A stretch of DNA of 33,914 bases from an uncultured Candidatus Peribacteria bacterium (GTDB lineage: Bacteria; Patescibacteriota; Gracilibacteria; BD1-5; UBA2023), in assembly GCA_964598195.1 (NCBI GenBank), contig CAZRBF010000003.1, positions 2,251 through 36,164 of the forward strand. The letters run 5' to 3'. The notes under the pieces are model-generated. The model did no database searches. It was not told where the DNA came from and worked only from the letters and a program-made list of their open reading frames with translations. How positions within the stretch are numbered: position 1 is the stretch's first letter; each line of letters begins with the position of its first letter. Of this stretch, positions 1-33,914 are shown in pieces. The translations under genes and the position numbers were made by a program.

Positions 1-575
1 TCGGGGATGAGGTGTGAGAAAATGAGGGAGCTCAGTTCCTGAGAAAAGAAAACCTCAACGGAAAATATATCCTCTGTGTATGAGAACTCCGAGAATACAA
101 AAATATCCCACGTCTGCTCACAGCATACAATCTGCTCGTGAAAGAAGATAAGACAGACATTGATCTCATACTTATCTGAAAAGAGGATCCATCATATCAT
201 GAGATACGCTCGACTCTCATAGCGCTCGGACTTCAAAGTCGTGTGCATATATACAATGTGCTCGACGATGAGAAAATTGGACTCCTCTATCAAAATGCTT
301 CTCTCTATGTTCTACCATCGCTCTATGAGGGATCAGAACAGGCTATTCTCGAACCACTCTCATACAATATTCCTATTGCAAGTGCATCGCTTCCGAGCAT
401 CACCTCCATCCTCACTAAAGATGATGCGCTATTCTTCCGTCCGATGAGCGTTTCAGATATTCGTGATGCCCTAAAAAAAGGCCTTTCAAATCCCATGAAA
501 AAAGATATAATAAGAGATATGTCCAGACATGACGTATCGAATATAAGTAGGCAAATACTCAAAACTTTTTCTTAA
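1..575 (+). CDS. Glycosyltransferase family 1 (GT4-like), C-terminal part; 5' end is outside the window
   Basis: Frame 3 is open from the window edge if TGA at 15-17, 81-83 and 177-179 is read as Gly: ...KYILCV-G-ELREYKNIPRLLTAYNLL...DLILI-G-KEDPSYHEI...LYVLPSLYEGSEQAILEPLSYNIPIASAS. This is the GT-B sugar-nucleotide binding half. TAA stop at 573-575. Track ORF 243..575 is only the tail. Confidence 0.8.
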
Positions 576-595
576 TTCATTATTTTTCTTAACCC

Positions 596-1954
596 ATGGA
601 AACAAATATCATTTTCTCACTCTTTATAGCAACTGTCCTCGGAGGACTTGTGGGATTGGAACGAGAAATGTCTGGAAAAACATACTCCAATGAGACGCAC
701 GATATACACTTCTGAGGGGTGAGATCATACGCACTGATAAGCCTCCTTGGGGCACTTTGTGCATGGATAGACACACTGTATTCTACCCATCTTTTTGTGC
801 TCGCATGAATGGGACTCAGTGCGCTACTTATAGTCATTTCGTACGCCTACACAGCTTTTCAAAGAGATTCCATAGGAGTAACAAGTGAGTATGCCGCATT
901 TATCGTCTATTTTCTGGGGATCATAGCCATGATGGGAAATTATATCCTTTCTGTTGTGCTTACTATTTTTCTCATGGTCATCCTCTCTTCAAAAGAGCAT
1001 TTTCAAACCATTCAATCAAAGATTACTCGGGAAGAGTTTCAGAATGCCATCAAGTTCGGAGTTATCGCCTTCATCATACTCCCCCTTCTTCCCAGTGCAA
1101 AATTTTCTTTTAGTGATATAGCAACATTTTTTGGTATAGCCACATCATTTGACTTTCGACTCTGGACGATGGATTTCTTTAATCCTTATGGAATCTGGTT
1201 CTTCGTTGTTGCTATGTCTGCTATCGAATTCATCGCCTACATTCTCTCAAAGGTTCTTGGGGATCGAGGTGGTATCATAATATCCTGAGCTGTTTGAGGA
1301 CTGGTATCATCAACAGCCGTTACGGCAACCATGACACAAAAAAGTAAAGACTCACCAAAAAATCGATCTTCCTATATAGTTGGAACTCTCGTGGCAACTT
1401 CTATAATGCTTATTCGAGTTATCCTCATCACTGCTGTTTTTGCTTTTGCCCTCCTAAAAACAATAGCCGTTCCCATGCTACTCATGTTGGTAGTAATGAT
1501 CAGCTTTATCGTATACCACTTTATCCGAGCCAAAAGCGAGACAAACGAAGTGGCAGTTCATATGGAAGAGGAGCTCAAAAGTCCATTTGAAGTGCTTCCT
1601 GCTATGAAATTCGCTCTTCTTATTCTTCTCATCAAATTCCTCTCTGCCATCGGAGTCACCTACAAAGATGTATTTGATCCCCAGATTCTCTATTATGTGC
1701 TCTGAATGGTCTCCTGACTTGCTGATGTAGATGCCATTACTCAAGACATGACTCAAAAAGCAAGTGAAAACGCGATTGCACCGCTCGTAGCAACCGTCAC
1801 CATTCTCATAGCTGTTATCTCCAATAACCTCGTAAAAGCCAGTATTGCATGGAGGCTTGGCGAACCGATCTACGGAAAAAAGGTCATGACCGCTTTTGCA
1901 TTTTCCATATTTGCTGGAGTGCTTGGAATTACAGGAATGTGGATAATGGGATAA
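596..1954 (+). CDS. MgtC/SapB-family membrane protein with DUF4010 domain
   Basis: ATG at 596. Track ORFs 809.., 1331.. and 1748.. share one frame and join through six in-frame TGA (713, 806, 1286, 1295, 1703, 1712). Motifs: GGLVGLEREMSGK, GVRSYALISLLGA, SGAVGGLVSSTAVTATM, VSGLADVDAITQDM. I checked codon by codon from 596 to 809 and found no TAA/TAG. TAA stop at 1952-1954. Confidence 0.75.
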
Positions 1955-1967
1955 TTACAAGAGTATT

Positions 1968-2603
1968 TTATTTTTTACATCCACATCCCTTATCCGTAAA
2001 AAATGGAACTTCTGGTGCATTGCATGCAAATTTAATATTGCTACACATATTGGCATCTCGGCTAATATAGCGCATTCCCGCTACTTCATCGGTCAAGTAG
2101 GATATATCGGTTTGGACAAGATTTTGAAGAAAGAGAAGTGCATATTTCATGCGGTCATTCATCATCTCCTGTGTAAGTGTCTTTGGAATCGCCCCATTCA
2201 GAGAAAGAGTATTCAATCGGGTAACTATTCGATCATTGAGCGCATTCAATCGTGCAAGTCGATCACTGGCAGTAAATCCAGCAATACGAACGATAAACAC
2301 GTCATACTGTCGTTTCAGTGAATTCTGGAGTCTCTCCGAAAGAACGGCTGAGGATCACTCCTCTGTAGCCTTACATTCACCATCATGAGCAAATGTCGCA
2401 GCGCTTTCCTGCGTCATGACACACATGTTAGAAAAGGTCTTATAAATCGGATAGCAAGGCGCTCGTATACACTGCACCTGCACTTTGGCACACACCGGTG
2501 TGTAGTCCATAGTACACATCATCAGGTCCGAAGTCGCTGCTGAAACCGAAGATGTCACCAAATAACCCGCAAGAGCCAATAAAAAAAGAAAAAAGTGTTT
2601 CAT
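1968..2603 (-). CDS. Secreted cysteine-rich protein with Kazal-like domain
   Basis: Track ORFs 2355..2603 and 1968..2300 are in the same frame and are separated only by TGA at 2355-2357, giving 211 aa. Signal peptide MKHFFLFLLALAGYLVTSSVSA. Six-Cys module C-x7-C...YTPVC...KTFSNMC...HDGEC resembles Kazal YxPVCG/TYxNxC/HxGxC. A second Cys cluster sits at the C-terminus (CSNIKFACNAPEVPFFTDKGCGCKK). TAA stop at 1968-1970. Confidence 0.6.
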
Positions 2604-2785: not shown

Positions 2786-2816
2786 GCGTCGGCTTTCTCT
2801 GGAAAGAGATGTATTT

Positions 2817-2893
2817 GCATCCATAGCTCAACTGGATAGAGTAGCGGTCTTCGAAGCCGTTGGTTGTAGGTTCGACTCCTACTGGGTGCACCA
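2817..2893 (+). tRNA. tRNA-Arg (anticodon TCG)
   Basis: Hand-folded cloverleaf. Acceptor GCATCCA/TGGGTGC, D arm GCTC..GAGT with A20, anticodon stem GCGGT/GCCGT, loop CTTCGAA (anticodon 2851-2853). T arm GTAGG-TTCGACT-CCTAC, discriminator A, encoded CCA. Confidence 0.9.
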
Positions 2894-2983
2894 TTAAAGT
2901 ATATACAAACTCGAAATTTTAGCTTAAATCTCCGTTTTTTCGATCGCTGTACTCTATCGTACAGCTTCCTCAAAATACTCGAT

Positions 2984-3012
2984 TTGCACTCAAATTTCAT
3001 CGCTTCTATACA
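2984..3012 (+). promoter_or_regulatory. Sigma-70-like promoter upstream of tRNA-Leu
   Basis: TTGCAC (2984-2989), 17-nt spacer, TATACA (3007-3012), about 48 nt before the tRNA. Sequence pattern only. Confidence 0.35.
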
Positions 3013-3060
3013 CTTTACAGGATTTAGATAACCTCAAAGAAAAGAAACTTTTTTACACCC

Positions 3061-3144
3061 GCCCGGGTGGTGGAATGGTAGACACGTACGCTTGAGGTGC
3101 GTATGCCGAAAGGTGTGTGGGTTCAAGTCCCATCTCGGGCACCA
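3061..3144 (+). tRNA. tRNA-Leu (anticodon GAG), class II with long variable arm
   Basis: Acceptor GCCCGGG/CTCGGGC, 3-bp D stem GTG/CAC, anticodon stem TACGC/GCGTA, loop TTGAGGT (anticodon 3094-3096). Long variable arm, T arm GTGGG-TTCAAGT-CCCAT, discriminator A, encoded CCA. Confidence 0.9.
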
Positions 3145-3159
3145 AAGAAAACCAAACAA

Positions 3160-3187
3160 CTCACGTGAAAACGTGGGTTTTTGTTTT
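3160..3187 (+). terminator. Intrinsic terminator after tRNA-Leu
   Basis: CTCACGT-GAAA-ACGTGGG hairpin with a GAAA tetraloop, followed by TTTTTGTTTT. Confidence 0.6.
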
Positions 3188-3204
3188 CTTTGTGCACGTT
3201 AGAT

Positions 3205-3365
3205 GATGGGACTTGAAGCCGTAGCGACACCTCCAAGCTCGAAGAGCGAGGAGGGAAAAACGTGCCCAAAGGCACGTTTCGTCGCAAGGAGTTCTGAAGT
3301 ACGAGTATCCGCGTCCGAATGGACCGGTACGACATTCTGAAGAAAAAGTCCCATCTCGGGCACCA
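3205..3365 (+). ncRNA. Candidate structured RNA element E1 (unclassified), ending in a copy of the tRNA-Leu 3' end with CCA
   Basis: GATGGGACTT (3205-3214) pairs with AAGTCCCATC (3346-3355). Internal helices: GCGAC/GTCGC, CCTCC..GGAGG (with inner GCTC-GAA-GAGC), AAACGTGCC-CAAA-GGCACGTTT and GTCC-GAAT-GGAC. The same architecture recurs in E2 with compensatory changes. A terminator follows. Strand is inferred from the downstream T-runs. I did not recognise a family. Confidence 0.45.
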
Positions 3366-3366
3366 A
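3346..3366 (+). repeat. Perfect 21-nt direct repeat of the tRNA-Leu 3' end (att-like)
   Basis: AAGTCCCATCTCGGGCACCAA at 3346-3366 is identical to 3125-3145 (T-loop end, T-stem 3' strand, acceptor 3' strand, CCA plus one nt). Confidence 0.85.
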
Positions 3367-3378
3367 TTTGATAAAAAC

Positions 3379-3409
3379 ATATCCTTCGTGAAAACGAGGG
3401 ATATTTTTT
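3379..3409 (+). terminator. Intrinsic terminator after element E1
   Basis: ATATCCTTCGT-GAAA-ACGAGGGATAT hairpin followed by a T-run. Same GAAA-loop design as the tRNA-Leu terminator. Confidence 0.6.
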
Positions 3410-3430
3410 AGCAAAAAGATACAAGAGAGA

Positions 3431-3584
3431 GATGGGACCTGAAGCCGTAGCAACCCTATCGACGAAGGAGATAGGTAAATATGCCTTGAATGGCATATTT
3501 TGTTGCAAGGAGTTTTCTGAAGCGAGAGTTCGTTTGAAAAACGAAATCGACACTGAAGAAAAAAAGTCCCATCTCTCTCCCCAA
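3431..3584 (+). ncRNA. Candidate structured RNA element E2 (diverged paralogue of E1) with degenerate tRNA-3'-end tail
   Basis: GATGGGACCT (3431-3440) pairs with AAGTCCCATC (3564-3573). Helices: GCAAC/GTTGC, CCTATC..GATAGG, AAATATGCC-TTGAA-TGGCATATTT and TTCGTT-TGAAA-AACGAA. Conserved joints CAAGGAGTTTTCTGAAG and CGACACTGAAGAAAAAAA. The tail TCTCTCCCCAA is a decayed version of TCGGGCACCAA. Confidence 0.4.
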
Positions 3585-3600
3585 TAAACACTATTATTTT

Positions 3601-3628
3601 TTGATTTTGATGAAAATCTCCCTACACT
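3601..3628 (+). promoter_or_regulatory. Possible promoter of the RhuM gene
   Basis: TTGATT (3601-3606), 16-nt spacer, TACACT (3623-3628), 40 nt before the ATG at 3668. Pattern only. Confidence 0.3.
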
Positions 3629-3667
3629 ATGACTTTGTGAGTTCTAAAAAATTTCCAAATTTCTCCT

Positions 3668-4693
3668 ATGCAAACCATTGTTTATACCGATCCATCAACG
3701 AATCTTAATGTCTCTGATGTTATATTTTTCCACGACACCATCTGGATGACTCAGACACAGATGTCCAAACTTTATAATACTGATGCGAGTGGTATTTCTC
3801 GGCATATTACAAAAATCTATACTGATGGCGAGCTTGATGAACTCAAGACTTGTACTGATGACAGTAAATTGCAAAAAATGCAAAATACGCAAAATAGCTT
3901 CAAGAAGCCAAAAAAGTACTATAATCTTCAAATGATTATCGCAATTGGATTTAAGGTGAATTCTCCTCAGGCAACCAGTTTTCGTACCTGGGCAAATACT
4001 ATAATCGATGAATATTCACGGACTGGGTATGCGCTTGATGATGACCGTCTCAGATGAGGTCAAACTTTCTCTCCGAAGAGAGACTACGACCGACTCATGG
4101 AACGAATTCGAGCCATCAGATTTGATGAAAGAAATATTTATGAGAAAATCAAAAATCTTTTCACGACCGCCAGTGATTATGATAAAACGAGTAGCCGAGC
4201 TATTGAATTTTTTCAAACAATCCAAAATAAGTTCCACTACGCAATTGTTGGTATGACTTCCCCAGAGATTCTTATGGATCGTGTGAATAGCAATAAGCCA
4301 GCTCTCGGGATGGTACATCACACAAAGAAAAATATAACTCTCTCGGAAGCAACTATAGGGAAAAATTATCTGCTGGAGGGAGAATTACGTAAACTGTATC
4401 TTCTTTGTGAACAATTCTTCGCATTCGCAGAGCTTCAGTATGCCTATGAAAGGGATTTGACTATGCAAGACTGGGTAACTTATCTCGATGAACTTTTACG
4501 AATGAACAAGCTTGAAATACTCCCGGGAAAATGAAATGTTAGTCGAGAAAAAGCAGAAGAATATGTGAAAAAACAAATGGCAGAATACCAGCAAAAATGG
4601 GGATCACTCGAAGTATATATCGAATGAGCAGAGTATTTAATAGACCGGGGAAATGTAAAAAATCTGAGTGATCATATGAAGCTAATTATTTAA
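3668..4693 (+). CDS. RhuM-family (virulence-associated) protein
   Basis: Track ORFs 3668..4057 and 4097..4534 are in frame. In-frame TGA at 4055, 4532 and 4625 extend the gene to TAA at 4691-4693 (341 aa). RhuM-like motifs: IWMTQTQMSKLYNTDASGISRHITKIYTDGELDE, YYNLQMIIAIGFKVNSPQATSFRTWAN, GYALDDDRLRGG, HYAIVGMTSPEIL, LEILPGKGNVSREKAEEYV. Confidence 0.8.
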
Positions 4694-4929: not shown

Positions 4930-5703
4930 ATGAAAAAAATTTCAGTTCTCGTTATATGTACTCTACTTCTTGTCTCCTGTGGTCAGAAAGAAGTAGTAGT
5001 ATCACCTCCTCCATTAAAAACAGGAACTGGAGCTCCTGTTTCGAAAATAGAAAGCGCTTCAGTTGTTGAGAAACAAAGTAATACAAAAGAGTTTTGACCT
5101 TATCGATATATAGAGGACTTTACATATTCCCCAGACTGAAAAAGCCTTGCTTTTATGGCTGAAAATGATTGAAAACAATTTGATTTTAATAATGAATGAA
5201 AAAGTTTCATCGTAAAGGATGGGATTGAGATAAAAAATTATGATTCTTTAAGATACCCTACCTATTCACCAGATGGTAAAAGCTTTGCTTTTCGAGCTAA
5301 GAAAGATGGGAAATATTTCATAATAAAAGATGGAGTTGAGAGTAGCAAGAAATACGGCTACATTGACGAACTTACTTATTCACCGGATGGTAAAAGCTTC
5401 GCTTTTATGGCAGAAAATGATTGACAACAACTGAATGACTGAAAAAGTTTCATAATAAAGGATGGGGTTGAGAGCGAAAAATATGAATTTATATACCAAC
5501 CTAAATTTTCACCAGATGGTAAAAATTTTGTATTTACAGCGACGAAAAACTGAAAAACATTTATTATAAAAAATGGAATTGAATTAACTGTGTATGATTC
5601 TGCGAGTGAACCTATATTTTCACCAGATGGGAAAAATATGGTATTTGTAAATTGAAATGATCAACAAAGACTGATTGTCTATTCATTAGAAACTGAAAAA
5701 TAA
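4930..5703 (+). CDS. Lipoprotein with TolB/PD40-like beta-propeller repeats
   Basis: The track has no ORF here. It is one open frame of 257 codons if eight in-frame TGA are read as Gly; I checked it codon by codon. Lipobox MKKISVLVICTLLLVSC. Five to six repeats of Y/F-SPDGK-x-FAF...DGK-x-F-I-I-KDG-V-E. TAA stop at 5701-5703. Confidence 0.75.
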
Positions 5704-5821: not shown

Positions 5822-6604
5822 TTAATCCACTAGATTCTTGCACTTTGGTAGCAATGGAAAAAATATGCTGGTTTTTTTCTTGTATGCCTCAAAATCAGGA
5901 CGTCATGCGTATTTTTTCTCGAGAAGTGGTACTCAAGAAACAAAGAGTATAAGAATAGTAATCGTCAGGGATCAAAGGAGTCCCCATGGCTCTTGGGTGC
6001 TCAGTGAAACAATACCCACTCACCACCAGAGGACAACTTCACCAAAATAGTTTGGATGACGACTATACTTCCATAAACCCGTTTGCATGAGCTTGCCTCT
6101 GTTTTCGGGATGTTTTAAAAAATTTTGGAGCTCTGAATCGGCAATCATCTCAAAGAAGAAACCAAATAATCAGATTATGACGCCGAGAAAAAAGAGACCA
6201 CGAGATTGGATAGTCTGATTTGCATTAATGAGTAGAACAGGGAGAGAAACCAAAAACAACAAGACTCATTGAAGTATGAAAACCTGGAAATACGATCGCA
6301 CATAAAACCATTTCTTGTTCCAAGCACTACGCCATACGCCATAACGCGCATCTTCTGGTTTGTGTCGATGCCGATTAAATATATGCCAAGCGAGACGTAT
6401 TCACCAAACCGTCACAAAGATATTTATGAGCAATCATTGCCAAGTATGTACTTGAGCGAGCCAATATGAAAGCCAGGATATCATGACAAATCAGAGGCCC
6501 CAGGCGACATCAGCAACATCGTTTCTAGATTGGATGACTGATACTATGAACCAAGCGGTCATATACAACCAGACTACAAGAATTAGAGTCGAGAGATCGT
6601 TCAT
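5822..6604 (-). CDS. DUF1295 / steroid 5-alpha-reductase-like membrane protein
   Basis: 260 codons, open when nine in-frame TGA are read as Gly; all triplets checked. Polytopic membrane protein with the C-terminal hallmark [19 protein letters not shown]. An alternative start at Met15 (6562) is possible. TAA stop at 5822-5824. Confidence 0.75.
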
Positions 6605-6999
6605 ACTCAGATTTTTATGGCTATAAAATAGGTCAAAACTGACACAAGAGCACCGAGAGTTATACCCCATGAGAGATCAACTATAGTGACCAAAAGTGGC
6701 CAGTTTTTCAGAGTTGCAAGATTCGTCAAATCATATGTTGCATAAGTGATACCACCAAAAAATGCCCCATAAACGAGAGCGTGCAGAGGTGAGTTCTTTT
6801 CTACAGCAGGTTGTATCACAAAAGATACAAGTCCGAATATAAATACGAGATAAAAAGTGATAGCTGCCCACCAATTGATATCCACTTTCATAAGAGATCC
6901 TATCTGAGCACGATAGAAGTTCTTGGCAATAAGTCCGAGCCAGATCATGTCGATAGCAAAAAAAACGGGGAGCGCTATACAATACAGCTTGAAGAGCAT
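6583..6999 (-). CDS. DUF2177-family small membrane protein
   Basis: Track ORF 6607..6999 (MLFKLYCIALPVFFAIDMIWLGLIAKNFY...YGAFFGGITYATYDLTN). Its TGA at 6607-6609 and a second at 6601-6603 are sense codons in table 25. The first real stop is TAA at 6583-6585. Confidence 0.7.
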
Positions 7000-7000
7000 A

Positions 7001-7147
7001 TTATTTATTGAGATATGTGATAGAAAATTGTAAAACTGTAGCGATTAAAACCCATGTAAGATACGGGATTTGTATATAGGTGATCCAGGGTGTATATCGA
7101 TACATAGCAATCATCGCCCAAATAAGTGAGGAAAGTACAACAACTCA
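7001..7147 (-). pseudogene. TspO/MBR-family remnant (C-terminal helix only)
   Basis: One frame reads ...LIWAMIAMYRYTPWITYIQIPYLTWVLIATVLQFSITYLNK then TAA (7001-7003), which matches the TspO C-terminal PYLxWVxFAxxLNxxI motif. It is blocked upstream by TAA at 7148-7150. A TspO-like FWIMSILYIMS piece lies in another frame at 7140-7175. There is too little room (243 bp) for an intact 150-aa gene. Confidence 0.4.
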
Positions 7148-7242
7148 TTATATACAAGATCGACATAATCCAAAAAGATTTACTTATCTCGAAAAAGCCG
7201 AAAAGTCTACAGTCAAGTCAAATTTATATTGTCAATCTCGTT

Positions 7243-8073
7243 TTACTGGCATAATTTTCCCCTATCCAGCTCCTCAAATGCTTTATTCAACTCCTCCTGC
7301 GTATTCATCACAATCGGTCCACCCCAGGCGATGGGTTCGTGGAGGGGTCGAGCCATGAAGAGGAGAAAACGAATCCCCTCCTTTCATGACTGAACATGAA
7401 TAGTATCACCTGACTCAAAAAGGACAGCGTGTTTATGATCGATATCACCCTCGCCAAAATCCCCAGCTCCAGAGACGATGTAGACAAATACCGTAGCTTC
7501 TGGATCGGTCAAGAAAGTCCAAGATTGTCAGGCGAATACTTCGATCTCAAGCGAGGTCATCTGAATATGATTTCCGCTTGTTGCTCCATGAATTCCATCG
7601 TATGACCCAGAGATAATCCGCGTACGTGAGGCACTCGTTTCGACAACAGGAATAGTATCATGACGGATATCACGATAGGTGGGCACTGTCATTTTATCAC
7701 TCGCCGGAAGGTTCAGCCAGAGCTGAACTCCGAGCATATGAGGGCTCGTATGAGGCATTTCCTGGTGGATAATCCCTGATCCGGCAGTCATCCATTGACA
7801 GTCTCCTGATGAGATAATTCCCGAGTTTCAGAGGCTATCGCGATGCTCGATTTCTCACTTTATGAGGTACGTGATAGTCTCGATTCCGCGGTGCGGATGA
7901 AAAGGAAACCCCTGAATATAATCGTCAGGATTAGTTGAGTCAAAAGCATCAAGCATGAGAAATGGATCAAAATAAGCAGTATCATGAAATCCGACGACTC
8001 GTGTTAGTCGTACTCCAGCACCATCGGTGGCAGATTTTCCTCTGATTATTTTCTTGATAGAACGTATGGTCAT
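7243..8073 (-). CDS. Pirin-family protein
   Basis: Track ORFs 7855..8073 and 7528..7791 plus the C-terminal piece are in one frame, joined by four in-frame TGA (276 aa). Motifs: [68 protein letters not shown]. TAA stop at 7243-7245. Confidence 0.85.
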
Positions 8074-8205: not shown

Positions 8206-8589
8206 ATGCGAGACAATGGAACATATCTGATAAAATCAGATGGGCAAGTTATTTTCGGGACAAAACAAAGACCGACTGATGGTAAATTACTGGTAATTAT
8301 CCCACAATTTGACATAAGTGAGCATGATGAAAGTTTGCGTGAGAAGTACTTGAAAGGTATAAATCAAACTGCAAGACTTCGTCATAAAAACGGACATGAG
8401 GAGGGTATGGAGAAAGCTCTTGGTGCTAATGCTAACTCCAGGGTTATGCTAATAGGGGATGACACTATCATTCCCCTAGACCAAGAAATAGCAACAAAAC
8501 TCTTGAAACAGGGTTTGCCATTGCTTCCATTAGCAAGATCTGTCGCTATTTCGGGGGCTGTCACTGTTTCAGAATCTGTCACTGTTTAA
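8206..8589 (+). CDS. Hypothetical protein (127 aa)
   Basis: Intact ORF with no TGA. It has a strong SD (AAGGAG, 7 nt before the ATG), a TTGACA box at 8145-8150, a TAA stop and a downstream hairpin terminator. I recognised no motif. Confidence 0.55.
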   Translation: MRDNGTYLIKSDGQVIFGTKQRPTDGKLLVIIPQFDISEHDESLREKYLKGINQTARLRHKNGHEEGMEKALGANANSRVMLIGDDTIIPLDQEIATKLLKQGLPLLPLARSVAISGAVTVSESVTV

Positions 8590-8787: not shown

Positions 8788-9771
8788 ATGGTAGATAATA
8801 AAAAGGAAGCGTTGAATGCAGCACTGGCGATGATCGAGAAACAATTTGGAGCCGGTTCTGTTATGAAACTTGGTGATCAACAGGCGATCAAGGTTGAGAT
8901 GATTGGATCTGGATCCATAGCTCTCGATGCAGCACTAGGTGGTGGGTATCCAAAGGGGCGAATTGTCGAGATTTATGGACCAGAATCATCTGGAAAGACC
9001 ACTCTCACACTTCACGCTATCGCTGAGGTTCAAAAAATCGGAGGAACGGCTGCTTTTATCGATGCAGAACACGCTCTCGATCCTGAGTATGCAAAAAAGA
9101 TCTGAGTAAATGTTGATGAACTTATCATATCTCAGCCCGATTATGGAGAACAAGCACTCGAGATCGTTGATGCCCTTGTTCGATCAAATGCTGTTGATCT
9201 CATAGTTGTTGATTCTGTTGCGGCGCTTGTCCCAAAGGCAGAAATCGAGGGAAATATGGGGGACTCTTTCATGGGACTTCAGGCACGCCTCATGAGCCAA
9301 GCTCTTCGCAAGATTACCGGAGCTATCTCTAAATCTAATTGTACCGTTATTTTCATCAACCAGATTCGTATGAAGATCTGAGTAATGTTCGGAAGTCCCG
9401 AGACCACAACAGGAGGAAATGCTCTCAAATTCTATGCTTCGCAACGTCTTGATATTCGCCGAAAAGAAAAACTCGAGAGTGGGGCCTGAGATGATAAAGA
9501 AACTACCGGGAATAAAGTGAAAGTAAAAGTAGTAAAAAATAAAATTGCACCACCCTTCAAAGAAGTCGAAATTGATGTTCTTTTCAACGAAGGAATATCC
9601 CTTGAAGGAGAGATTGTCGATATAGGAACCGAGAAAGAGATTATCAAAAAATCTGGTGCCTTCTATTCATACGGAGATATCAAACTTGGTCAAGGTCGCG
9701 AGAATGCACGACAATTTTTGAAAGAAAATACCGCAATCGCCGACGAAATCGAAAAGAAAATTCGAGCATAA
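8788..9771 (+). CDS. recA: Recombinase RecA
   Basis: Track ORFs 8788..9105 and 9517..9771 are in one frame, continuous through TGA at 9103, 9379 and 9487 (327 aa). Motifs: [81 protein letters not shown] stop. Confidence 0.95.
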
Positions 9772-9828: not shown

Positions 9829-10107
9829 ATGTCCGAAGACAAATCACCCTTATCTACAAATCAACCAACTCCTGATGAGGTAGTTATGCCTCCTGAAATT
9901 GCTGCTATTTTAGAGAATACTAACCTATGAGCAATTGATGCTGTCGAGTTTAAATCAAGAGAAACAAATCTTGTTCGTTATTTTAGTCGAGAATTATTAG
10001 GAATTATGGGAAAGGTAGATCCCGAAAAACTTTCAGGAACTGTTATCTCCTTGCAGGAAATTCGAAAACAAGAAGCAGCTAAAGAATCTTTTAAAAAAGC
10101 TGCCTAA
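9829..10107 (+). CDS. Hypothetical small protein (92 aa)
   Basis: ATG at 9829, one in-frame TGA, TAA at 10105-10107. It fills the recA to oxidoreductase gap on the same strand. No recognisable motif. Confidence 0.4.
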
Positions 10108-10127: not shown

Positions 10128-10802
10128 ATGCAACAACTTCCATTTACACTCATGCAAAAAAATAAGCTCACACACGACGTGTATGAGCTTATTTTTACTA
10201 CAGCAGAAAAAGTTCAGGTAGAACCAGGACAATATACCCTCTTCATTCTTCCAAAATCAAAACTCCGCCGAGCGTACTCTATCGGATATACCGATGGTCA
10301 GACTTTTACTTTTATCATTAAACAGCTCGACGGTGGAGCTGGAAGCACCGAGATCTGTTTTCTTGAAATAGGAGAAAACATTATGGGAATGGTGCCACTT
10401 GGCCACTTTGTCCTCAAATCCAATGCGACTCCGAAGCTCTTTATTGGAACAGGGACAGGGTTTGCACCACTCTATTTTCAGATTCGAGCCATGATGGATT
10501 CAGGGATAAAAACCTCACTCAAATATATTTTCGGAATACGAACACGGGCTGATATTTTCTATATCGATGAACTCAATCGTATGAAGAAAGAGTATCCTCT
10601 GTTTGATTACCAGATATTTTTGAGTCAGGAAGACAGTGAAAACACCACCCGAGGACGTGTCACAGATTTTCTCACAAAGGAAAACATAGAGAGCTACGGT
10701 GAATTCTATCTCTGTGGAAGTCCGGCAATGGTAAAAGAGGCCCGAGAGAAGCTCGAAAATATTGGAATCGAAAAAGAGAAGGTGTTTTTTGAACAGTATT
10801 AA
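10128..10802 (+). CDS. FAD/NAD(P)-binding oxidoreductase (ferredoxin-NADP reductase-like fold)
   Basis: Intact 224-aa ORF without TGA. RAYSIG (the RxYS FAD motif), GGAGST, and FIGTGTGFAPLY (NAD(P) binding GTGxAP). C-terminal YLCGSPAMV. Confidence 0.8.
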   Translation: MQQLPFTLMQKNKLTHDVYELIFTTAEKVQVEPGQYTLFILPKSKLRRAYSIGYTDGQTFTFIIKQLDGGAGSTEICFLEIGENIMGMVPLGHFVLKSNATPKLFIGTGTGFAPLYFQIRAMMDSGIKTSLKYIFGIRTRADIFYIDELNRMKKEYPLFDYQIFLSQEDSENTTRGRVTDFLTKENIESYGEFYLCGSPAMVKEAREKLENIGIEKEKVFFEQY

Positions 10803-16231: not shown

Positions 16232-16438
16232 ATGAAAACATTCACACTCACAACCGAATACATCGAAATGAACAAGCTCATGAAGCTCTTACAGCTCACA
16301 GAAACTGGTGGGCAAGCAAAAATTGCTATCTCACAAGGACTCGTAACAGTCAATGACGAGATAGAACTTCGCCTCCGACGAAAGCTCAGAAAATGAGACA
16401 AAGTCGATTTTGATGGAGTGAAAGTGGAAATTATGTAA
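16232..16438 (+). CDS. S4-domain RNA-binding protein (YaaA-like)
   Basis: 68 aa: MKTFTLTTEYIEMNKLMKLLQLTETGGQAKIAISQGLVTVNDEIELRLRRKLRK-G-DKVDFDGVKVEIM. The one in-frame TGA is at the conserved RxGD glycine. TAA stop. It starts 6 nt after the VirB4-like stop. Confidence 0.65.
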
Positions 16439-24811: not shown

Positions 24812-25333
24812 ATGTTCAAACTCGTAGAATTTCTTCAAAAGCGCCCAAAAGATCGGACCATCCTCATGGGACGGGTAGTATTTGGTGTTATTATTGCCAT
24901 TCTTTTAGGGCTCAATCTTAACAATATCACACTTCACCTTCCAAGCGCACTTCAGTCCTACGAAAATATAGCCATATATGGACTCTTTATTCTCGCTATT
25001 ATTCCATTTTTTATGGGAGTAAGTGGTCTTTGTATTGCGAAGCGAAAATATATTCGTATTATGCAGATATCTTTCGGGGTTATCCTCTTTATTGTAGGAA
25101 ACTGGTTTGTTGATGTAAAAACTGCACCAACCACCACCCCTACAATTCCGACCCAAAGTGGTTCACTCGACTACAATGCACTCTCCGAATCAAAAACCCC
25201 TTCCAAGCCTGTCAATGTCGGTTTTTGGCTCGCTCTCCTCGGGATTCTCCCACTCATAGCAGGCATAAGTGGAAAATGTATCACCAGTAAATGTTTAAAA
25301 TACGGGGAAGTTATTAAAAAAATACGGGTATAG
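24812..25333 (+). CDS. Membrane protein, DUF2892/YgaP-like (tentative)
   Basis: Intact 173-aa ORF without TGA. Four hydrophobic helices. GVSGLCIAKR and GISGKCITSKC motifs recall DUF2892. Thr/Pro linker. TAG stop. Confidence 0.5.
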   Translation: MFKLVEFLQKRPKDRTILMGRVVFGVIIAILLGLNLNNITLHLPSALQSYENIAIYGLFILAIIPFFMGVSGLCIAKRKYIRIMQISFGVILFIVGNWFVDVKTAPTTTPTIPTQSGSLDYNALSESKTPSKPVNVGFWLALLGILPLIAGISGKCITSKCLKYGEVIKKIRV

Positions 25334-25405: not shown

Positions 25406-26320
25406 ATGAACTTCCTTAAACGAGTATCACTCTTTCTTCTCACAAATATTGCTATTATCCTGGTGATAAGCGCATTGATATTTGTTTTTGAGCGTTATTT
25501 TGGCATTCATATAACCTCAGGAACTACGAATGGGTATCAGGGGTTATTTCTTTTTTCTCTTATATTTGGTTTTTCTGGAGCTCTTTTAAGCCTGGCCATT
25601 TCTCGATGGATGGCAAAAAGCACCTACGATATCAAGCTCCTTTCAGAGAGTCGTCTTATGGACTATGACCAGAAAACACAGCTCGTGTATACTACAGTTG
25701 CAAATATTGCCTGAAGAAATAGTATCAACATGCCCGAGGTTGGCGTATATGTGAGCGACGATCCAAATGCCTTTGCTACGGGTCCTTCCAAGAATCAAGC
25801 ACTTGTGGCGGTTTCTACCGGACTCTTGCAAAATATGACTTCCGCAGAGGTAGAAGGAGTTATCGCCCATGAGATGAGCCACATCCTCAATGGAGACATG
25901 GTTACTATGACACTCCTTCAAGGAATTCTCAATACTTTTGTGATCTTCTTCGCTCGTATTATCGGAAATATCATCGACAACGCCATTTTTAAGAATAGGG
26001 AAGGGAATGGTTGGGGGTACTATATCTCAGTTGTTATCCTAGAAGCCATGTTTGGAATTCTTGCCTCTCTCGTGCTTATGGCATTTTCACGTCATAGGGA
26101 ATATCGGGCTGACGAGGGAAGTTCCCGTCTTGTGGGAAAAGACAAGATGATACTGGCATTGAAACGTCTCGAGCATATTGTAACAAGCAAAGAGATTGTT
26201 GATGACGGCAAGCTCGCAACATTCAAAATCCACTCCGAATCAGGATTTCTGAGTCTTCTCATGTCACATCCGAGTCTCGAGGATCGTATTAAAAATCTTG
26301 AAAATAATTACCAATTATAA
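25406..26320 (+). CDS. htpX: Zinc metalloprotease HtpX (M48)
   Basis: Start taken at MNFLKRVSLFLLTNIAIILV, the HtpX-like N-terminus. The track start at 25349 is a GTG inside the promoter. One in-frame TGA at 25712 joins ORFs 25349.. and 25730... HEMSHILNGD zinc motif, second motif REYRADEGS. TAA stop. Confidence 0.9.
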
Positions 26321-26322: not shown

Positions 26323-27084
26323 ATGCTCCGAGCAAACCCCCATGTTTTCTCTCTTGGAGAAAAACAGTACACTATTCATAATGAAGAAGAACTAGCACTC
26401 GTGCTGGAGCTTATTGCTTCGTCAAAAAATGGATTCACCCTCCATAGACATATCATCATGACACTCGATGAAAAGCTCATGGATATTATAGTATCCTATA
26501 AAGGATTGATCCTTTGTATGAAACAATTAGAGTTTAAGAATCGCTTTTTACTTCTCATAAAAATTGGAGATACCCTTTCTCAGGTTATTGGTAAATCAGA
26601 ACAACTTGGAAGTATTCTCGCTGGTATTCCCGAGGAGGCCGACAAGATTCGTATTATCAAGAGTATTCGTACCAAAGGGCTTATTCGTATGATTCACACC
26701 CCAGATGATCTCTGAAATATTCTCGAATGGATATTTGGACCTGGAGAGAGGTTGGTTTTTGAGATGCTTGGAAAAACATTTCTCGAGTCACTTTTTGCAT
26801 ACGGAACAGATATATATAAAGTTTTTCACTTTCTCTCTGATGAGAACAAAAATATTCTCGCAGATCTTCTTACTCTTACCTTTATCAAGGCTCATATATA
26901 CACTGCAAATGATTTCTTTTATGTACTGAAGGCTCTGAGTAATGAAAAAGCTAGTGAATTTATACCCATTTTTAACCCAGAAGAAATACGTACAATTATC
27001 TGAGATAACGACACTCTTCATCATTTTCTTCCAAAAATTACCAAAGAAAAAGAATTCACTCTCTTACAACATATAAAAATTTAA
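26323..27084 (+). CDS. Hypothetical protein (253 aa), helical
   Basis: Track ORFs 26323.. and 26752.. are in one frame, joined by TGA at 26713. TGA at 27001 extends the gene to TAA at 27082-27084. No recognised motif. Confidence 0.5.
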
Positions 27085-27087: not shown

Positions 27088-28152
27088 ATGCTTCATGAAT
27101 CTATCCTTATCGGATTAAATAATACTCAGATAGAAAACATAGTTCAGACAGGAAACACTGCTCTTGAGCCTCTTGCTGGATCGAGGTACCCTATGATCGA
27201 TACTCATGTTCATGCGGTCAACTTTCTCCAAGAAACACCAGGATTCGAGAATCTGATCATCCACATGAATCAATCCAATATACAAAAGGCAGTAGTTTTT
27301 TGACTTCCTGTTACCAAGCAGTGGTCCGAATATGAACGCGAAGCACCAGAATACTACCTCGATGATGATAGTGAATGTTACTACTATAGTGCGACCGATA
27401 CGATCGTTGCAGAAGAGTACAAAAATCTCTCTCCAGAGAATCAAAAACGCATCTACCCACTTATTTGTGGATTCAATCCTGCTGACAAACATGCCATCAA
27501 ACACATAGAACGAATGTATCGACTCTATCCAAATGTTTGGAGTGGCATCGGAGAGATTCTTCTCAGGCACGATGACCTCACTCTCCTTACCAACGGAGAT
27601 ATGCCTCGCATTAACAATAAAGCCCTCTATCCGATTTTTCAATTCGCAGATAACTACGATCTGCCAGTTTCTGTACACAATAATATTTCTACCACTTGGA
27701 TAGCTGATCGTCCGAAGTATCTCCATGAACTCGAAGAAATACTGCGAGAATTCCCGCGTGTAAAGATGATATTTTGTCACTGTGGAATCTCCAGACGTGT
27801 TTATGCACCGTTCTACAAAAAGATGATCGAACGACTCTTGCTCCAGTATCCAGGCCTTCATGTGGATTATTCATGGATTATCTTCGATGAAATTATCTGT
27901 AAAAATGGGGTTCCTGATCCTGAATGGATAGAACTCACCGAACGCTTTTCTACGAGAATCCTCATCGGATCTGATGTTATCGGGAACTTTCATAAAATCG
28001 GGGTTATCAACCATCGCTACGATGTATTTCTCGAGCGACTGAGCGAAGAAACCAGACAGAACATCTGCATGAACAATGCGGAAAGACTCTTTTCAAAAAC
28101 GCGATGAGTGGTTGAAAACGGCGAAAAAAGAGTGTATCCAGATGTTTTATAA
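27088..28152 (+). CDS. Metal-dependent amidohydrolase (TIM-barrel, amidohydrolase-2-like)
   Basis: Track ORFs 27088.. and 27514.. are in one frame, joined by TGA at 27301. TGA at 28105 extends the gene to TAA at 28150-28152 (354 aa). MIDTHVHAVNF metal-binding start, VSVHNN, FCHCG, LIGSDV. Confidence 0.7.
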
Positions 28153-28185: not shown

Positions 28186-29043
28186 ATGGAAGAACTTTCC
28201 CTGGCCAGGATAAAAGGCTTTCTATGAAATACTCCTCCAGAGACGAAAAAAACACTCCAGGACTTTGATGTATTTCTTAAAGGTGAGTTAAAGAAAATCG
28301 ATTACGATCAAGAAAAAAGACTCGAGGTACTTTTCTATCTCCTCATCACAAAACTGCAACTCTCTCCCATGGAGACACCCGAAATTCGTGGGTATTTTTA
28401 CGAATTTTTAGAAGAGATGAAAAAGATTACCGTTTCTCTTACCAATGAAAATCACAAAAACTCAAAAAGTAAATTACTCCTTCATAGTATCTGACGTGCA
28501 TTTAAAGGTATTAGTTATCGACATAAAATTCTTTCAAACAAGGTACGGATAAATCAAATTCGAGCATATTTTCAACTCTGTGAGTATTACATTCATTTTC
28601 TTGAGCGGGTTTACAAAGATTTGAGCATGTCGGATCGAGTAATGGAACTCTACGTAGTACGCATGAACATAAAGCGAGATGCTCATTTTTTTTATCAGCG
28701 TTTTTGGCTCTACACTGGATTCACTATTTTTAAATGAATATCATTGTATGGAACAAGTTTTGGTCGTCTGGCTATTACCTGTTTTTCATCGATTATCCTC
28801 TTCTGAAGCATCTATTGGTTTGCAGATTTTTTTGCTCCATCCAATCTCCGAATGATTAAAGATCTTCATGATTATTCTAGCTATCTTTTTAATTCACTCA
28901 CCACGATATCTGGGCTCGGTATTGACGCAAGTCCTGCCACTTGACTCCAGCGTCTTGCTATGGGAATTAATACTATCTATGGTATGGTTGTTTTTGGCAT
29001 GCTTTTCAATGTCATTTCGACCAAACTCAGTATGAATAACTAG
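28186..29043 (+). CDS. Two-TM ion-channel-like protein with non-canonical pore signature
   Basis: No ORF of 60 aa or more appears in the track. The frame is open with five in-frame TGA (285 aa), TAG at 29041-29043. A soluble N-terminal region of about 170 aa, then TM1 (FGRLAITCFSSIILFGSIYWF), a pore-helix-like SYLFNSLTTISGLGIDASPAT-G-LQR and TM2 (INTIYGMVVFGMLFNVI). Confidence 0.5.
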
Positions 29044-29113: not shown

Positions 29114-29184
29114 AACAAAAAAACTTGCCATATCACACATTATCGCTATAGTCAAATAATATTATATATGTAATAACTAATTAT

Positions 29185-30474
29185 ATGTCAATTAATCAAT
29201 ATTTTGTTCCAGAAGAAGCCACAAAAACAACGGGGCATTTTTATAGTAACCGCAATTCTTCTCCCATAGATATCATGGAAACACGTCTCTATGATTATAT
29301 GCAGAAGGCCCAATACCATCTTGTAAGTGAAGGTTTTATCTTTTCTGATGAAGATTTTCGTATCATTCAAAATTCATCAGCTTTTCTTGACTCTATCTTC
29401 AAAAATCAAACTCCGTGAGAAGAGGCAAATTTCTTTCCAAAAATCGTACCCTGACATCATGTTGTTAATGTTTTTTACAAAAAACCGGGGTCTGACGTGT
29501 TTACGCTTCAATTTGCAAATGCCGCATATCTCGATAAATTAGGTAAAAATCTTCCTGATGTTGTCGGTATTCGAGAAGATGATCTCATGAATCAACTCTA
29601 CAAATCAGATACAATAGATTCTATTAGACAAGCATCTAAACAGTGATACACGGCAAAATTCATAGAAATGGATAATATCAGCCTTAGTAAAGACGAAGAT
29701 ATTCCAGCTTTCTTTTGGTTTACTACAACTTATCCGTGCCCAAATAATTGCGGAACTTTGATGGTACGTATTGGAATGAATGGAACAGGTCTTAATCTGG
29801 AACAAAAAACAAAACTTACAAATCTCTACAAGCTCACCGATAGGCTCAGAAATGACTACATGAATGTCGTAAGCTATGCAAATCCATCTTCAGCATTACT
29901 CGTTCAACGTATTAATCAAAAATTGATGTGCACACTGGATGATGATTGTGCACCACTATTCTCCCTCATGGACATGACTGTCAAACTTTCTGAACTTATT
30001 ATGAACTTTAGTCCGCTTCCTGCTTCTATGGTAGATAAATCAGGAAAGATAACTCATATTAGCCCGGCATATGCCGCTGCTGTGGGATATAAAGAAAGTC
30101 AAATTAGGGATGAGCATTTTTTTGATAAAATATATCCAGGGGTCGAGGGAAGGCTTGTAAAAGAAAGCATTGCCGCATATATGAAAAATTGATACTATCC
30201 AGAAGGCTCGTCATTCATGCTCACTCGCGGAAAAGCATTTCGTCGACTAGAAGAACACATGGGAATTCCTCCTATTGATTGATTGGAACTTATACCAAAT
30301 ATTTATTCATTTATTGGTGGTGCTGCTCGATTAAATACAGTACGTCCATTGGCCCCAATCTCTTGATTTGGCAACCTTGCGGATACCCGTCCTATGGAGT
30401 ACTTTCCTGAAACAGAACCATCACCGCTTGAGAATAGGGCAGTGGCAGAATGGCTTAAGAATCAAAATTTATAA
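29185..30474 (+). CDS. PAS-domain protein (probably tandem PAS), no output domain
   Basis: Track ORFs 29185.. and 29668.. are in one frame with six in-frame TGA (429 aa). PAS-like SPLPASMVDKSGKITHISPAYAAAVGYKESQIRDEHFFDKIYPG. TAA at 30472-30474. Confidence 0.5.
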
Positions 30475-30515
30475 TAAATAGCACTGGATATTTTGTATGC
30501 TTAGAAAGAGGGGGG

Positions 30516-32582
30516 ATGTATCCCGATTCACGAAAAAACCGAATTAATAATAATTATCAATCAAGTCCCATGAAACAATTCCTTTCTTCATCAGTCCTTG
30601 CTACCGCCCTCACCATATCGTCTCCAAGCATGGGAAAAACCCCCGAGAGCATCCCTGGTACTCTCGGGGATAATCAGTCTACCACCCTTGTGGACAATAC
30701 GAACCAGAGAACAACACATACCTTGCGCGCAATGCCCGACTATTCGTCATTGGGATCACTCTGATTTGAAAAAAACTACACTGAAGTCCCTTCCAGAGAA
30801 GAACAAAAAGTTGCCATCGAATCAGGAGTGAGCAAGGCACAAGATATTCTCACTCACATGGAAAAAAAATGAGTGATTACTTCTGATGAAACTATTCTGG
30901 AAGAAGTTTTTCGCCAAGGAAAAGAACAGTCGACTCGTATTTTCCATAATCTTGACACACGTGAAGCTGGATCAAAGGAATGGTGGAAGGCACTCATAGA
31001 ATTGTTTGCTATCGTTAACTTCTTTACCCTGCTTCCATGGGCATATGGCCAAACTATTGCTGGAGCTAAAGATGGTACGGGGACTAAGGGTATTACTTTT
31101 GTTGCTTTTTCAGGATCAAACCTTGTGGGAATGGTTGCATCATTTCTCTCATGATCACCGCTCCTTGGGAGTGGATATGCTGTAGCCTTTGTCTCTGCGA
31201 TTAGAACGGTAAATGCACTTTCAAATAGAAAACAACTGAATGTGAGCTTGGCCATTGAACTAGAAGAAGCAAAACGAACTATCCAGGAGCTGACACAAAA
31301 AATGGCACATCAGGGCTTTACTATCATGGATGAAAATGGAAAACCGAGTTTTACAGTTCCGTATGAATACTTTACAAACAATATTCTGTTTTCAATATAT
31401 AACGAAGAATGAGAGCCACTATTTTTCTCTGATGCCTATCTCAAAGAGCTCAATTATACCATGAATGAGATTAGGGATTATTACAAAAAACATGGGGAGG
31501 TAAATTCTTTATTTTATCCAGAACCAGAAGCATTAGAACATGTAAAAGAACGTCTCGAGACCCTAAAGGATAAACCTGAGGGGTATACTGCGGATTTTCG
31601 ACCGAGACCAAAATGATGGGATCCAAAGAAAAAGAATGATAATGAGCTAGTATTGAGATTTCATACTGGTGCTCAAAAAATTTATCCAATAAATCCATTA
31701 TCACATCCAATTTATATTCGTCGTGCAGTAAATGTGAGTCAAGAATATAAGGAGCGTGCTGCTCAATGAATTGATGCTCTTACTGGTGAGGCAAATCGTA
31801 CTGGTTTTGAGGCATATTTTAACCAAAAAGTTCAGTGTATTGAACAAAGAAAATCAAACCTACAAACATTTCCCAAAAAAATAGCACTGGCATTTGGGGA
31901 TATAGACTTTTTCAAAAGAGTTAACGATTTATACCTTCATACGAATGCCGATATTATTCTCCGAGAGCTTGCTGCTTGTTTCCGTAGAAATCTCTATCCA
32001 GAAGATTGTGTTGCTCGTATTGGAGGAGATGAGTTTGGTGTTATCTGCGAATGAGCAACAAAAGAAAATCTCGCAAAAAAACTTACAGACATACGGAAGG
32101 AGTTCTCTTCTCTTGTTTTTCAAATAGAAAATGGGGTCATGACCAATATGATTTCCTGCAAAGATAAAAATGAAGCACAAAAGTTTGCTGATGCAATTAA
32201 TACCTTTGAATCTAAAAACGCTGGACGTTGTTTTATTTGAGGTATCTCATTTACTATGGGGGTAACAGGAATAGAAACCAAAGGCATAAATAGCAATGAG
32301 GATGCTTCTCTGTTACGAGCTAAACTCGAATTTGAAGCGGATACCGCTCTTAGTTACAGTAAAAAATTAAGGGATATTTTTCCGGAATGTGATTCGAGAA
32401 ATGCTGTTGCTTATTCTGAATTTAATAAAGATGGTAAGCTCTTAAGGATTAAAGTTCTCTATCATACAGGAGAAACAAAGATTATTGAATGACACGAAAC
32501 ATTTTCTAAGGCGGAAGAAAACATCGAAAAAAGTGTAAAAAAATCACTAGAGGAACGATACAATCAAGAAAAAGGGTCGTAA
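30516..32582 (+). CDS. Membrane-associated diguanylate cyclase (GGDEF domain)
   Basis: ATG at 30516 behind a GAGGGGGG SD. Track pieces 30516.., 30873.. and 32256.. are in one frame, joined by nine in-frame TGA (688 aa). Hydrophobic helices at about 30970-31200. GGDEF domain: IDALTGEANRTGFEAYF, ALAFGDIDFFKRVNDLY, ARIGGDEFGVICE. TAA at 32580-32582. An alternative start is Met at 30570. Confidence 0.8.
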
Positions 32583-32695
32583 TATTCGGTTTTACGGATA
32601 GGAGAAATATTTTCTCGAGTCTTTGGATCGAAAAATTTTGGATTTTTGCCTAAGATCGATATACTCATACATATCTCATCTTTTTTTCTCTGGAA

Positions 32696-33914
32696 ATGGC
32701 ACTTTACCAAACATACAGACCCAAAGATTTTCACTCGCTTTTCGGACAAACTTTTGTTCGAGAGGTTTTGCAGAATGCTCTTTTGCAAAACCGTACGGTT
32801 GGTGCCTATTTGTTTCATGGATCTCGAGGAACCGGAAAGACGACTGTCGCACGTATACTCGCAAAGTGAGTCAATTGTTTGTCACTTACCGTAGATGGAA
32901 ACCCGTGTGGAGAGTGTCAAAATTGTCGCGCATTTGATGATGGCAGTCTTCTTGATGTTATCGAGATCGATGCTGCTTCCAATACAGGAGTGGATAATAT
33001 CCGTGACATGATCGAGCGTGCCCAATTTCAGCCCACTCAAGCACCCTACAAGGTGTACATTATCGACGAGGTCCACATGCTTTCAAAGGGGGCTTTTAAT
33101 GCACTGCTGAAAACCTTGGAAGAACCACCAAAACACGTGAAGTTCATCCTCGCAACAACCGAAATTCACAAAATTCCCGATACGATCATCTCCCGTTCGC
33201 AAAGATTCGATTTCAAGAGAATTAAAAATGATGACATCATCACCCAACTCCACGCCATTGCTCACGCAGAAAAAATAGAGGTTGAGGAAGCAGGACTTGA
33301 GCTCATCGCAAGACTCGCAAAATGAGGGATGCGAGATGCTATAACCCTCTTTGAGCAGTATTCTGTCTGAGGAACTCTCAAACGAAAATATATCGAGGAG
33401 AACCTCGAACTCATTGGAGATGATTTTCTCTCCGATTTTGTCGAATCTCTTGTTTCAAGAAATAGTGACCGAGCGCTCAAAAATCTTGCGTTTCTTCGTG
33501 AAAAAAGCCTCGATGTACGACTCTTTCTCGAGCAGCTTCTCTTTTTTCTCCGCGATCAAATGAAGGAGTCTCTCAAAAAACCTACATTTGGCGGTTATGC
33601 ACACCTTTTCGAGACATTTGAAGGAATTTACGGACGACTCAAATACTCCCCAGATCCATTTCTCCTCTTAGAAACAAGTGTTTTCCGATGCATTGCATCT
33701 CATGACATTAAAGTGGCAAAGAATTTTCCTGAAGATGAAAAAAATGGCGCAGTAGCCACTCGTAATACCCCAAAAAAAGAAGAAAAAATAGATATTCCTC
33801 AATCTGTTCAAAAAACAGAGGAAAAAGCTTCCGAAGAAAAACCGACTACCGCATTTGACTTCAGTCGATTTGTTGAGCATATTCGAACGGTTCCAAAACG
33901 CTCTTTTGTCTGAC
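32696..33914 (+). CDS. dnaX: DNA polymerase III subunit gamma/tau; 3' end is outside the window
   Basis: ATG at 32696. Pieces 32879.. and 33560.. are in one frame with in-frame TGA at 32866, 33323, 33368 and 33911. YRPKDFHSLFGQ, LFHGSRGTGKTTVARILAK-G-VNC, Zn module CGECQNC, IIDEVHMLS, SRSQRFDF, LAK-G-GMRDAITL. Confidence 0.9.

Follow-up and report, generated by a model that had tools for sequence, protein, structure and literature searches.

The 33,914-nt stretch of contig CAZRBF010000003.1 analyzed in this work (the whole stretch is called "the window" below; 40.1% guanine plus cytosine, GC) was interpreted as part of the chromosome of a Gracilibacteria/BD1-5-type bacterium (Patescibacteria, candidate phyla radiation) which uses translation table 25, that is, a code in which UGA encodes glycine and only UAA and UAG terminate (probability of about 95%). 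Glycine had already been proposed for TGA in an initial annotation of this DNA, and all the tests that could be run favored it over tryptophan or a stop.

Re-calling the genes under alternative codes, a check put forward in the initial annotation, raised coding density (non-overlapping open reading frames, ORFs, of at least 100 amino acids, aa) from 57.3% under the standard code (table 11) to 91.9% once TGA was opened, with tables 4 and 25 behaving alike. The median ORF increased from 142 to 354 aa, and the number of ORFs of at least 300 aa was 28 with TAA and TAG alone as stops vs. 6 with TAA, TAG and TGA. Opening TAG or TAA in place of TGA gave densities of only about 64-65%. GC-matched loci from standard-code organisms (Pseudoalteromonas, Methyloprofundus, Legionella, Saccharimonadales and Rickettsiales loci, 31-44% GC) reached 84-94% under table 11 and gained nothing from opening TGA, and two related loci showed the same jump as the window (45% to 82% in L001 and 33% to 92% in L081). 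A ratio comparing total ORF lengths when TGA is and is not a stop was dropped because it was confounded by GC (high-GC standard-code loci also gained), and was replaced by the non-overlapping coding density and the GC-matched controls.

When ORFs were first called greedily, ending only at TAA or TAG, 30 ORFs with 113 in-frame TGAs resulted. Curation consisted of the inspection of the six frames, Pfam envelopes, signal-peptide-like starts and hand trimming; about 20 of the 113 TGAs were dropped, corresponding to spurious N-terminal extensions, an ORF antisense to a tRNA-Leu and a wrong-frame ORF masking the real Gmk gene. The 30 curated coding sequences (CDSs) were tightly packed, covered 89% of the window (10,030 codons) and included 92 in-frame TGAs spread over 26 of them, close to the approximately 90 counted previously; TGA made up about 13% of the glycine codons (92/700). 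Twenty-five CDSs ended in TAA and four in TAG, and one (DnaX) ran off the window, so that all 29 complete CDSs ended in TAA or TAG and no TGA stop was needed. The earlier tally of 26 TAA and 4 TAG stops was right as to TAG and the absence of TGA stops, and wrong as to TAA. Five of the six TGA positions given at that time were exact (9103, 9379, 12713 on the minus strand, 20856 and 15228), and the sixth, in DnaX, was one base off (32867-32869, not 32866-32868).

The features on which the choice of the amino acid and of the code bears are the following (TGA codons by position):

596-1954, plus strand: MgtC/DUF4010 membrane protein (Pfam), six TGAs (713, 806, 1286, 1295, 1703, 1715).
2817-2893, plus strand: tRNA-Arg(UCG) (ARAGORN, Rfam).
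4930-5703, plus strand: PD40-repeat lipoprotein with five internal repeats, eight TGAs.
5822-6604, minus strand: DUF1295/steroid-reductase-like membrane protein, nine TGAs, eight on Gly columns and one on a Trp column.
7243-8073, minus strand: Pirin (Pfam), four TGAs (7855, 7828, 7528, 7384).
8788-9771, plus strand: RecA, three TGAs (9103, 9379, 9487).
12176-12751, minus strand: guanylate kinase (Gmk; PF00625), TGA 12713 as the first P-loop residue (x-PSGVGKT).
14253-16226, plus strand: VirB4/TraG-like P-loop ATPase of 657 aa (4ag5-like, E = 3.5e-44), two TGAs (14310, and 15228 in the Walker A motif AKSG-x-GKS).
16268-16438, plus strand: small S4-domain (YbcJ-like) protein of 56 aa, one TGA (16394).
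17973-19553, plus strand: lysyl-tRNA synthetase (LysRS; Pfam), two TGAs (18276, 18315) in a variable OB-domain insertion.
20718-22034, plus strand: MurE, four TGAs (20808, 20856, 21225, 21924).
22573-24780, plus strand: DNA topoisomerase I (TopA), two TGAs (22696, 23170).
32696-33913, plus strand: DnaX (clamp-loader tau/gamma), 3' end cut, four TGAs (32867, 33323, 33368, 33911).

Pfam matches crossed the TGAs without interruption in RecA, MurE, TopA, LysRS, DnaX, Gmk, Pirin, DUF1295, MgtC and others; the RecA match, for example, extended over residues 8-271, across three TGAs. Table 11 would cut the affected essential genes into 2-10 pieces: RecA would be split into fragments of 105, 91, 35 and 93 aa, and DUF1295 into ten.

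Three deep alignments were used to identify the amino acid: RecA (31 orthologues from standard-code genomes), DUF1295 (119 homologues at no more than 57% identity) and MgtC/DUF4010 (120 homologues). Seventeen of the 18 TGA columns had a Gly majority and one a Trp majority; none of these columns had a Cys majority. In RecA and DUF1295 the mean composition of the TGA columns (G 0.83, W 0.09, A 0.03) was indistinguishable from that of the GGA (G 0.83) and GGT (G 0.84) columns of the same proteins, the TGG columns having W 0.72, so that TGA behaved as a glycine codon. Columns with at least 80% conserved Gly were encoded in the window by GGN (35), TGA (10) or other codons (3), and conserved Trp columns by TGG (11) or TGA (1). 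RecA residues 106 and 198 were Gly in all 31 orthologues as well as in the structures from Escherichia coli and Herbaspirillum; residue 234 fell in a region of indels in distant orthologues and was GGT, GGT and GGG in the loci compared codon by codon, L001, L002 and L032, respectively. In DUF1295, Gly was found in 119/119 homologues at residues 38, 68, 113 and 224, in 118/119 at residue 195, in 112/119 at residue 211, in 87/119 at residue 234 and in 60/119 at residue 57. All six MgtC columns were Gly-majority with a minority of Trp. Since the homologues concerned have an abnormally high overall Trp content (5-8%), this minority would most simply correspond to TGAs of relatives translated as Trp by the database.

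Comparisons at the codon level were confined to two genes, RecA vs. L001 (80% identity) and MgtC vs. L081 (70% identity), because synteny with L001 was restricted to RecA and the next gene, and synteny with L081 to MgtC. Sixteen aligned sites had TGA in either partner: 13 were TGA/GGN, one TGA/TGA, one TGA/GAG and one TGA/ACC, and none was TGA/TGG. The six MgtC TGAs were all GGA, GGG or GGT in the L081 orthologue. The same exchange was observed inside a single gene of the window, the PD40 lipoprotein, whose repeats alternate TGA and GGN and are a compact within-gene demonstration of the code: the "SPD-G-K" position was GGN in four of the five repeats and TGA in one, and the next "D/N-G-K" position GGN in one and TGA in four.

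Solved structures gave the same amino acid at the MurE P-loop and residue 399, RecA residues 106 and 198, DnaX residues 58 and 210, Pirin residue 73 and the YbcJ position. MurE residues 47 (P-loop GxxGKT) and 399 were Gly in 4/4 structures, DnaX residues 58 (LAK-G-LNC) and 210 (AAE-G-SLRDA) were Gly in E. coli DnaX, and Pirin residue 73 was Gly in both pirins. TGA 16394, which had been noticed previously as "RK-G-D" in an S4 protein and was located here in the 56-aa S4/YbcJ-like ORF, aligned to Gly in the E. coli YbcJ structure (1p9k), with the match going on beyond it. The first P-loop residue of Gmk was Gly in the yeast enzyme and Ser in 3lnc; TopA residue 42 was Gly in E. coli TopA and Ser in 6ozw. 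The argument of the initial annotation that Trp does not fit inside P-loops is consistent with the MurE and Gmk positions. Its VirB4 Walker A glycine was only half right: the TGA is present at 15228, but the position is Ala in 4ag5, the only solved homologue, and is a small-residue site rather than an invariant glycine. The tabulation of orthologue residues which had also been suggested gave Gly for RecA 106 and 198, MurE 47 and 399, and DnaX 58 and 210, and nothing informative for TopA 200 or either LysRS position; the LysRS codons, lying in a lineage-specific insertion, were aligned to a gap in one case and to Asp in the other. The S4/YbcJ-like gene is located directly after the VirB4/TraG-like ATPase gene, and no other type IV secretion components were recognized nearby.

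Several observations weigh against glycine or limit the evidence for it. Only 35 of the 92 TGAs could be aligned with homologues, the remainder being in lineage-specific proteins. About 25 of these 35 were on Gly-majority columns or on columns with Gly in at least one compared sequence, and about nine were at variable or indel positions (H/E/D, A, K, N or S in the orthologues) and were uninformative: MurE residues 31 and 169 (both variable), Pirin residues 82 and 182 (Gly in human pirin) and 230 (variable), DnaX residue 226 (Asp), LysRS residues 101 and 115, and TopA residue 200 (variable). The earlier generalization, an invariant or typical glycine at TGA in every known family, was too strong; it held for about 25 of the 35, and did not hold for these approximately nine positions and for one conserved Trp. 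Some of the MgtC homologues belong to this same lineage and had been translated with a code that was itself assumed, which makes the MgtC alignment only partly independent; no such reservation applies to the RecA and DUF1295 alignments or to the PDB structures. A tRNA with anticodon UCA was present neither in the window nor in the six loci retrieved through RecA (L001, L002, L021, L028, L032 and L075) nor in L081 or L082, all of them fragments too short to be informative in this respect. Finally, one TGA (6170-6172, minus strand; DUF1295 residue 145, LGVII-x-LFGFFFE) was on a column which was Trp in 116/119 homologues and Phe in 3/119, and this TGA was also present in a second assembly (L084, described below).

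DUF1295 residue 145 is the sole unexplained item of this analysis, and its simplest reading is a TGG-to-TGA transition resulting in a Trp-to-Gly substitution. Ambiguous decoding, in which UGA is mainly Gly and a minor fraction is read as Trp by the near-cognate tRNA-Trp(CCA), the ambiguity being tolerated or exploited at some sites, would be a refinement of table 25 rather than a true rival, and was considered improbable. It would account for a TGA on a 97% Trp column reproduced in two assemblies, and for the few UGA = Trp peptides reported in the proteomics of a BD1-5 bacterium (3 peptides unique to Trp vs. 97 unique to Gly, and 1 vs. 40 at the highest stringency; PMC4032931). However, Ala, Lys and Asp were matched by single peptides in that dataset as well, which points to noise, the two assemblies sharing the codon may come from related samples, and the plain transition explains equally well what is one site among 35 aligned. 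One such site is too little for dual decoding to be claimed; if ambiguous decoding were true, code 25 would include a naturally ambiguous Gly/Trp codon.

Table 4, in which TGA is a tryptophan codon, is known in Mycoplasmatales, Entomoplasmatales and several insect endosymbionts. It shares with the window the use of UGA as a sense codon and the recovery of density once TGA is opened, and, as regards gene boundaries and coding density, its predictions do not differ from those of table 25. These genes were translated in this way in a public protein collection (P0001, the DUF1295 of this organism with Trp at all nine TGA positions), and the conserved Trp column of DUF1295 is also as expected from it. 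The difference is in the amino acid, which in the window is Gly and not Trp, and table 4 was judged very improbable: apart from the Gly majority of 17 of the 18 deep columns, Trp was absent from 10 of 11 RecA and DUF1295 columns, TGA was paired with GGN 13 times and never with TGG in the orthologues of relatives, Trp would occupy the P-loops of MurE and Gmk and the invariant Gly of RecA and DnaX, and Trp content would more than double (from 0.79% to 1.70% of codons).

The standard code, with the in-frame TGAs as real stops (pseudogenes), selenocysteine codons, programmed read-through sites or sequencing errors, was the least probable explanation and could practically be set aside, since nothing specific favored it (four TGA-free genes are intact under any code) and it would break 26 of 30 genes, including the essential single-copy RecA, TopA, LysRS, MurE, DnaX and Gmk, in up to 10 pieces, with homology on both sides of every tested TGA, 57% density here vs. 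84-94% in the GC-matched controls, 92 TGAs in 26 genes and no Cys-majority column where selenocysteine would affect a few genes only, and a second assembly whose sole mismatch is not at a TGA.

This second NCBI assembly (GCA_020049755.1; L084, contig JAHZTO010004003.1, 24,470 nt) matched the window at 99.995% identity over 21,263 nt, with a single mismatch away from any TGA, which argues that the TGAs are not assembly noise. A further assembly (L083, GCA_020047435.1) was 99.63% identical over 2,149 nt; both contain the organism of the window. Neither rRNA nor ribosomal-protein markers are found in the window. In a collection of species-level genomes, RecA was closest (81% identity) to that of a Candidatus Gracilibacteria metagenome-assembled genome (MAG) with the same coding-density signature, and many MgtC homologues were labeled Candidatus Gracilibacteria by NCBI.

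The Gracilibacteria (BD1-5)/Absconditabacteria clade corresponds to the GTDB class JAEDAM01. In Absconditabacteria (SR1), CGA and CGG are reported to encode Trp in addition to UGA = Gly (Shulgina and Eddy 2021, PMC8629427). The window shares UGA = Gly; CGA and CGG, in contrast, have remained arginine codons. CGA was the most used Arg codon (142 codons, 142 per 10,000, vs. 70 AGA; CGG, 29), its columns were R 0.76 and K 0.18, and the tRNA-Arg(UCG) at 2817-2893 fits this heavy use. Alignable CGG codons were also on Arg positions: R in 118/119 homologues in DUF1295, R in 90 and K in 26 in MgtC, and Arg in the solved homologues of Gmk, LysRS and TopA. The reassignment of CGA/CGG to Trp is therefore absent here, as is the CGG-to-Trp change reported for some Gracilibacteria, and the window shows a lineage without this further step of the Absconditabacteria. 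As far as codon usage can tell, this absence points to an organism on the BD1-5/Gracilibacteria side of the clade rather than in Absconditabacterales.

L032 (DATDAE010000152.1, "Candidatus Gracilibacteria bacterium SMAG_U88") showed no recoding signature (87.7% under table 11 vs. 87.9% with TGA open), and its RecA had GGN at all three TGA positions of the window; this agrees with reports of standard-code genomes among the NCBI "Gracilibacteria" (PMC8629427; gTranslate preprint 10.64898/2026.05.24.727570). L002 (JAYELJ010000060.1, "Patescibacteria group bacterium MAG111") increased in density from 79.6% to 93.5% with TGA open, so that TGA may be recoded in this unclassified MAG as well; no in-frame TGA is present in its RecA. 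In L081 (a 65-kb Logan contig, SRR24928213), the neighborhood at 1-20771 was wholly unlike the window, apart from the 70% identical MgtC. It carries Z1-domain, N6_N4 methyltransferase, ResIII helicase, TnsA-like and reverse-transcriptase gene fragments, all of them fragmented by table-11 calling, which suggests a defense or mobile-element island.

That Gracilibacteria and Absconditabacteria read UGA as Gly has been on record since 2013, is backed by proteomics and is picked up routinely by Codetta-type tools, and the initial annotation was correct in calling the recoding already described (PMC8629427, PMC4032931); the window is one more instance. Table 25, the SR1/Gracilibacteria code, goes back to Campbell et al. 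2013 and Rinke et al. 2013 (as cited in PMC8629427). The window resembles the known cases in having TGA in most genes, on Gly columns and exchanging with GGN, TAA and TAG as sole stops, relatives named Candidatus Gracilibacteria, and a GC content (40%) inside the reported 0.21-0.53; there is no difference in kind, the loci for release factor 2 and tRNA-Gly(UCA) being outside what the window contains. By analogy with the lineage, a dedicated tRNA-Gly(UCA) would read UGA, and the UGA-recognizing release factor 2 would have been lost, a loss through which UGA is proposed to terminate no longer (PMC8629427; preprint 10.64898/2026.05.24.727570). There was no release-factor gene of any kind in the 33.9 kb of the window, genome-wide absence being a matter for a complete genome. 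The identity elements expected in a tRNA-Gly(UCA) with table 25 are G1:C72, C2:G71, G3:C70 and U73.

The consequences for annotation are real but local. A standard-code annotation of the locus is largely wrong, as had been predicted: table 11 splits 26 of the 30 genes, Gmk among them, which in the table-11 ORF list is a 147-aa fragment starting from an internal ATG, and table-11 calls on the relative L081 likewise split MgtC, the Z1-domain protein and others. The gene lengths of the public protein collection on L084 were the read-through lengths found here. Table 4 yields the right boundaries but turns 92 glycines of the window into Trp, and the coding-density heuristics of common pipelines cannot separate it from table 25, a known limitation. 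Such Trp-for-Gly errors hit critical glycines, as in P-loops, and would make homology searches, structure prediction and composition statistics less reliable.

The other features of the window are the following:

3-575, plus strand: glycosyltransferase group 1, 5' end cut, three TGAs (15, 81, 177), stop TAA (PF00534, E = 1.4e-17 across the TGAs).
1968-2603, minus strand: hypothetical secreted protein with a signal-peptide-like start, one TGA (2355), no Pfam match.
3061-3144, plus strand: tRNA-Leu(GAG) (ARAGORN, Rfam).
3668-4693, plus strand: RhuM-family protein, three TGAs (4055, 4532, 4625; PF13310, E = 2e-73 across the TGAs).
8206-8589, plus strand: hypothetical 127-aa protein, no TGA (ORF call; the same gene was called in L084).
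9829-10107, plus strand: hypothetical 92-aa protein, one TGA (9928; ORF call only).
10128-10802, plus strand: FNR-like oxidoreductase, no TGA (Pfam).
10852-12114, minus strand: seryl-tRNA synthetase, no TGA (Pfam; the query that led to L084).
12948-14135, plus strand: SpoIIE/PP2C phosphatase, three TGAs (PF07228 across the TGAs).
16464-17846, plus strand: hypothetical lipoprotein, four TGAs, stop TAG (ORF call).
19585-20688, plus strand: hypothetical 367-aa protein, four TGAs (ORF call).
22035-22445, minus strand: hypothetical secreted protein, two TGAs (ORF call).
24812-25333, plus strand: hypothetical membrane protein, no TGA, stop TAG (ORF call; identical protein on an NCBI contig).
25406-26320, plus strand: HtpX/M48 protease, one TGA (25712; PF01435).
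26323-27084, plus strand: hypothetical 253-aa protein, two TGAs (ORF call).
27088-28152, plus strand: amidohydrolase, two TGAs (PF04909).
28186-29043, plus strand: hypothetical membrane protein, five TGAs, stop TAG (ORF call).
29185-30474, plus strand: hypothetical 429-aa protein, six TGAs (ORF call).
30516-32582, plus strand: GGDEF-domain protein, nine TGAs (PF00990).

Two stretches, unusually long for so compact a window, were without a convincing ORF, 3145-3667 (523 nt, between the tRNA-Leu and RhuM genes) and 6605-7242 (638 nt, upstream of DUF1295). Beyond the two tRNAs, no Rfam family reached the gathering score in the window, and a search of these two stretches at permissive thresholds gave nothing credible. 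RhuM-family genes are common on prophages and genomic islands. The region 2817-4693, in which tRNA-Arg(UCG) and tRNA-Leu(GAG) are followed by the first of the non-coding stretches and then by the RhuM-family gene, may be the edge of an element integrated at a tRNA gene.

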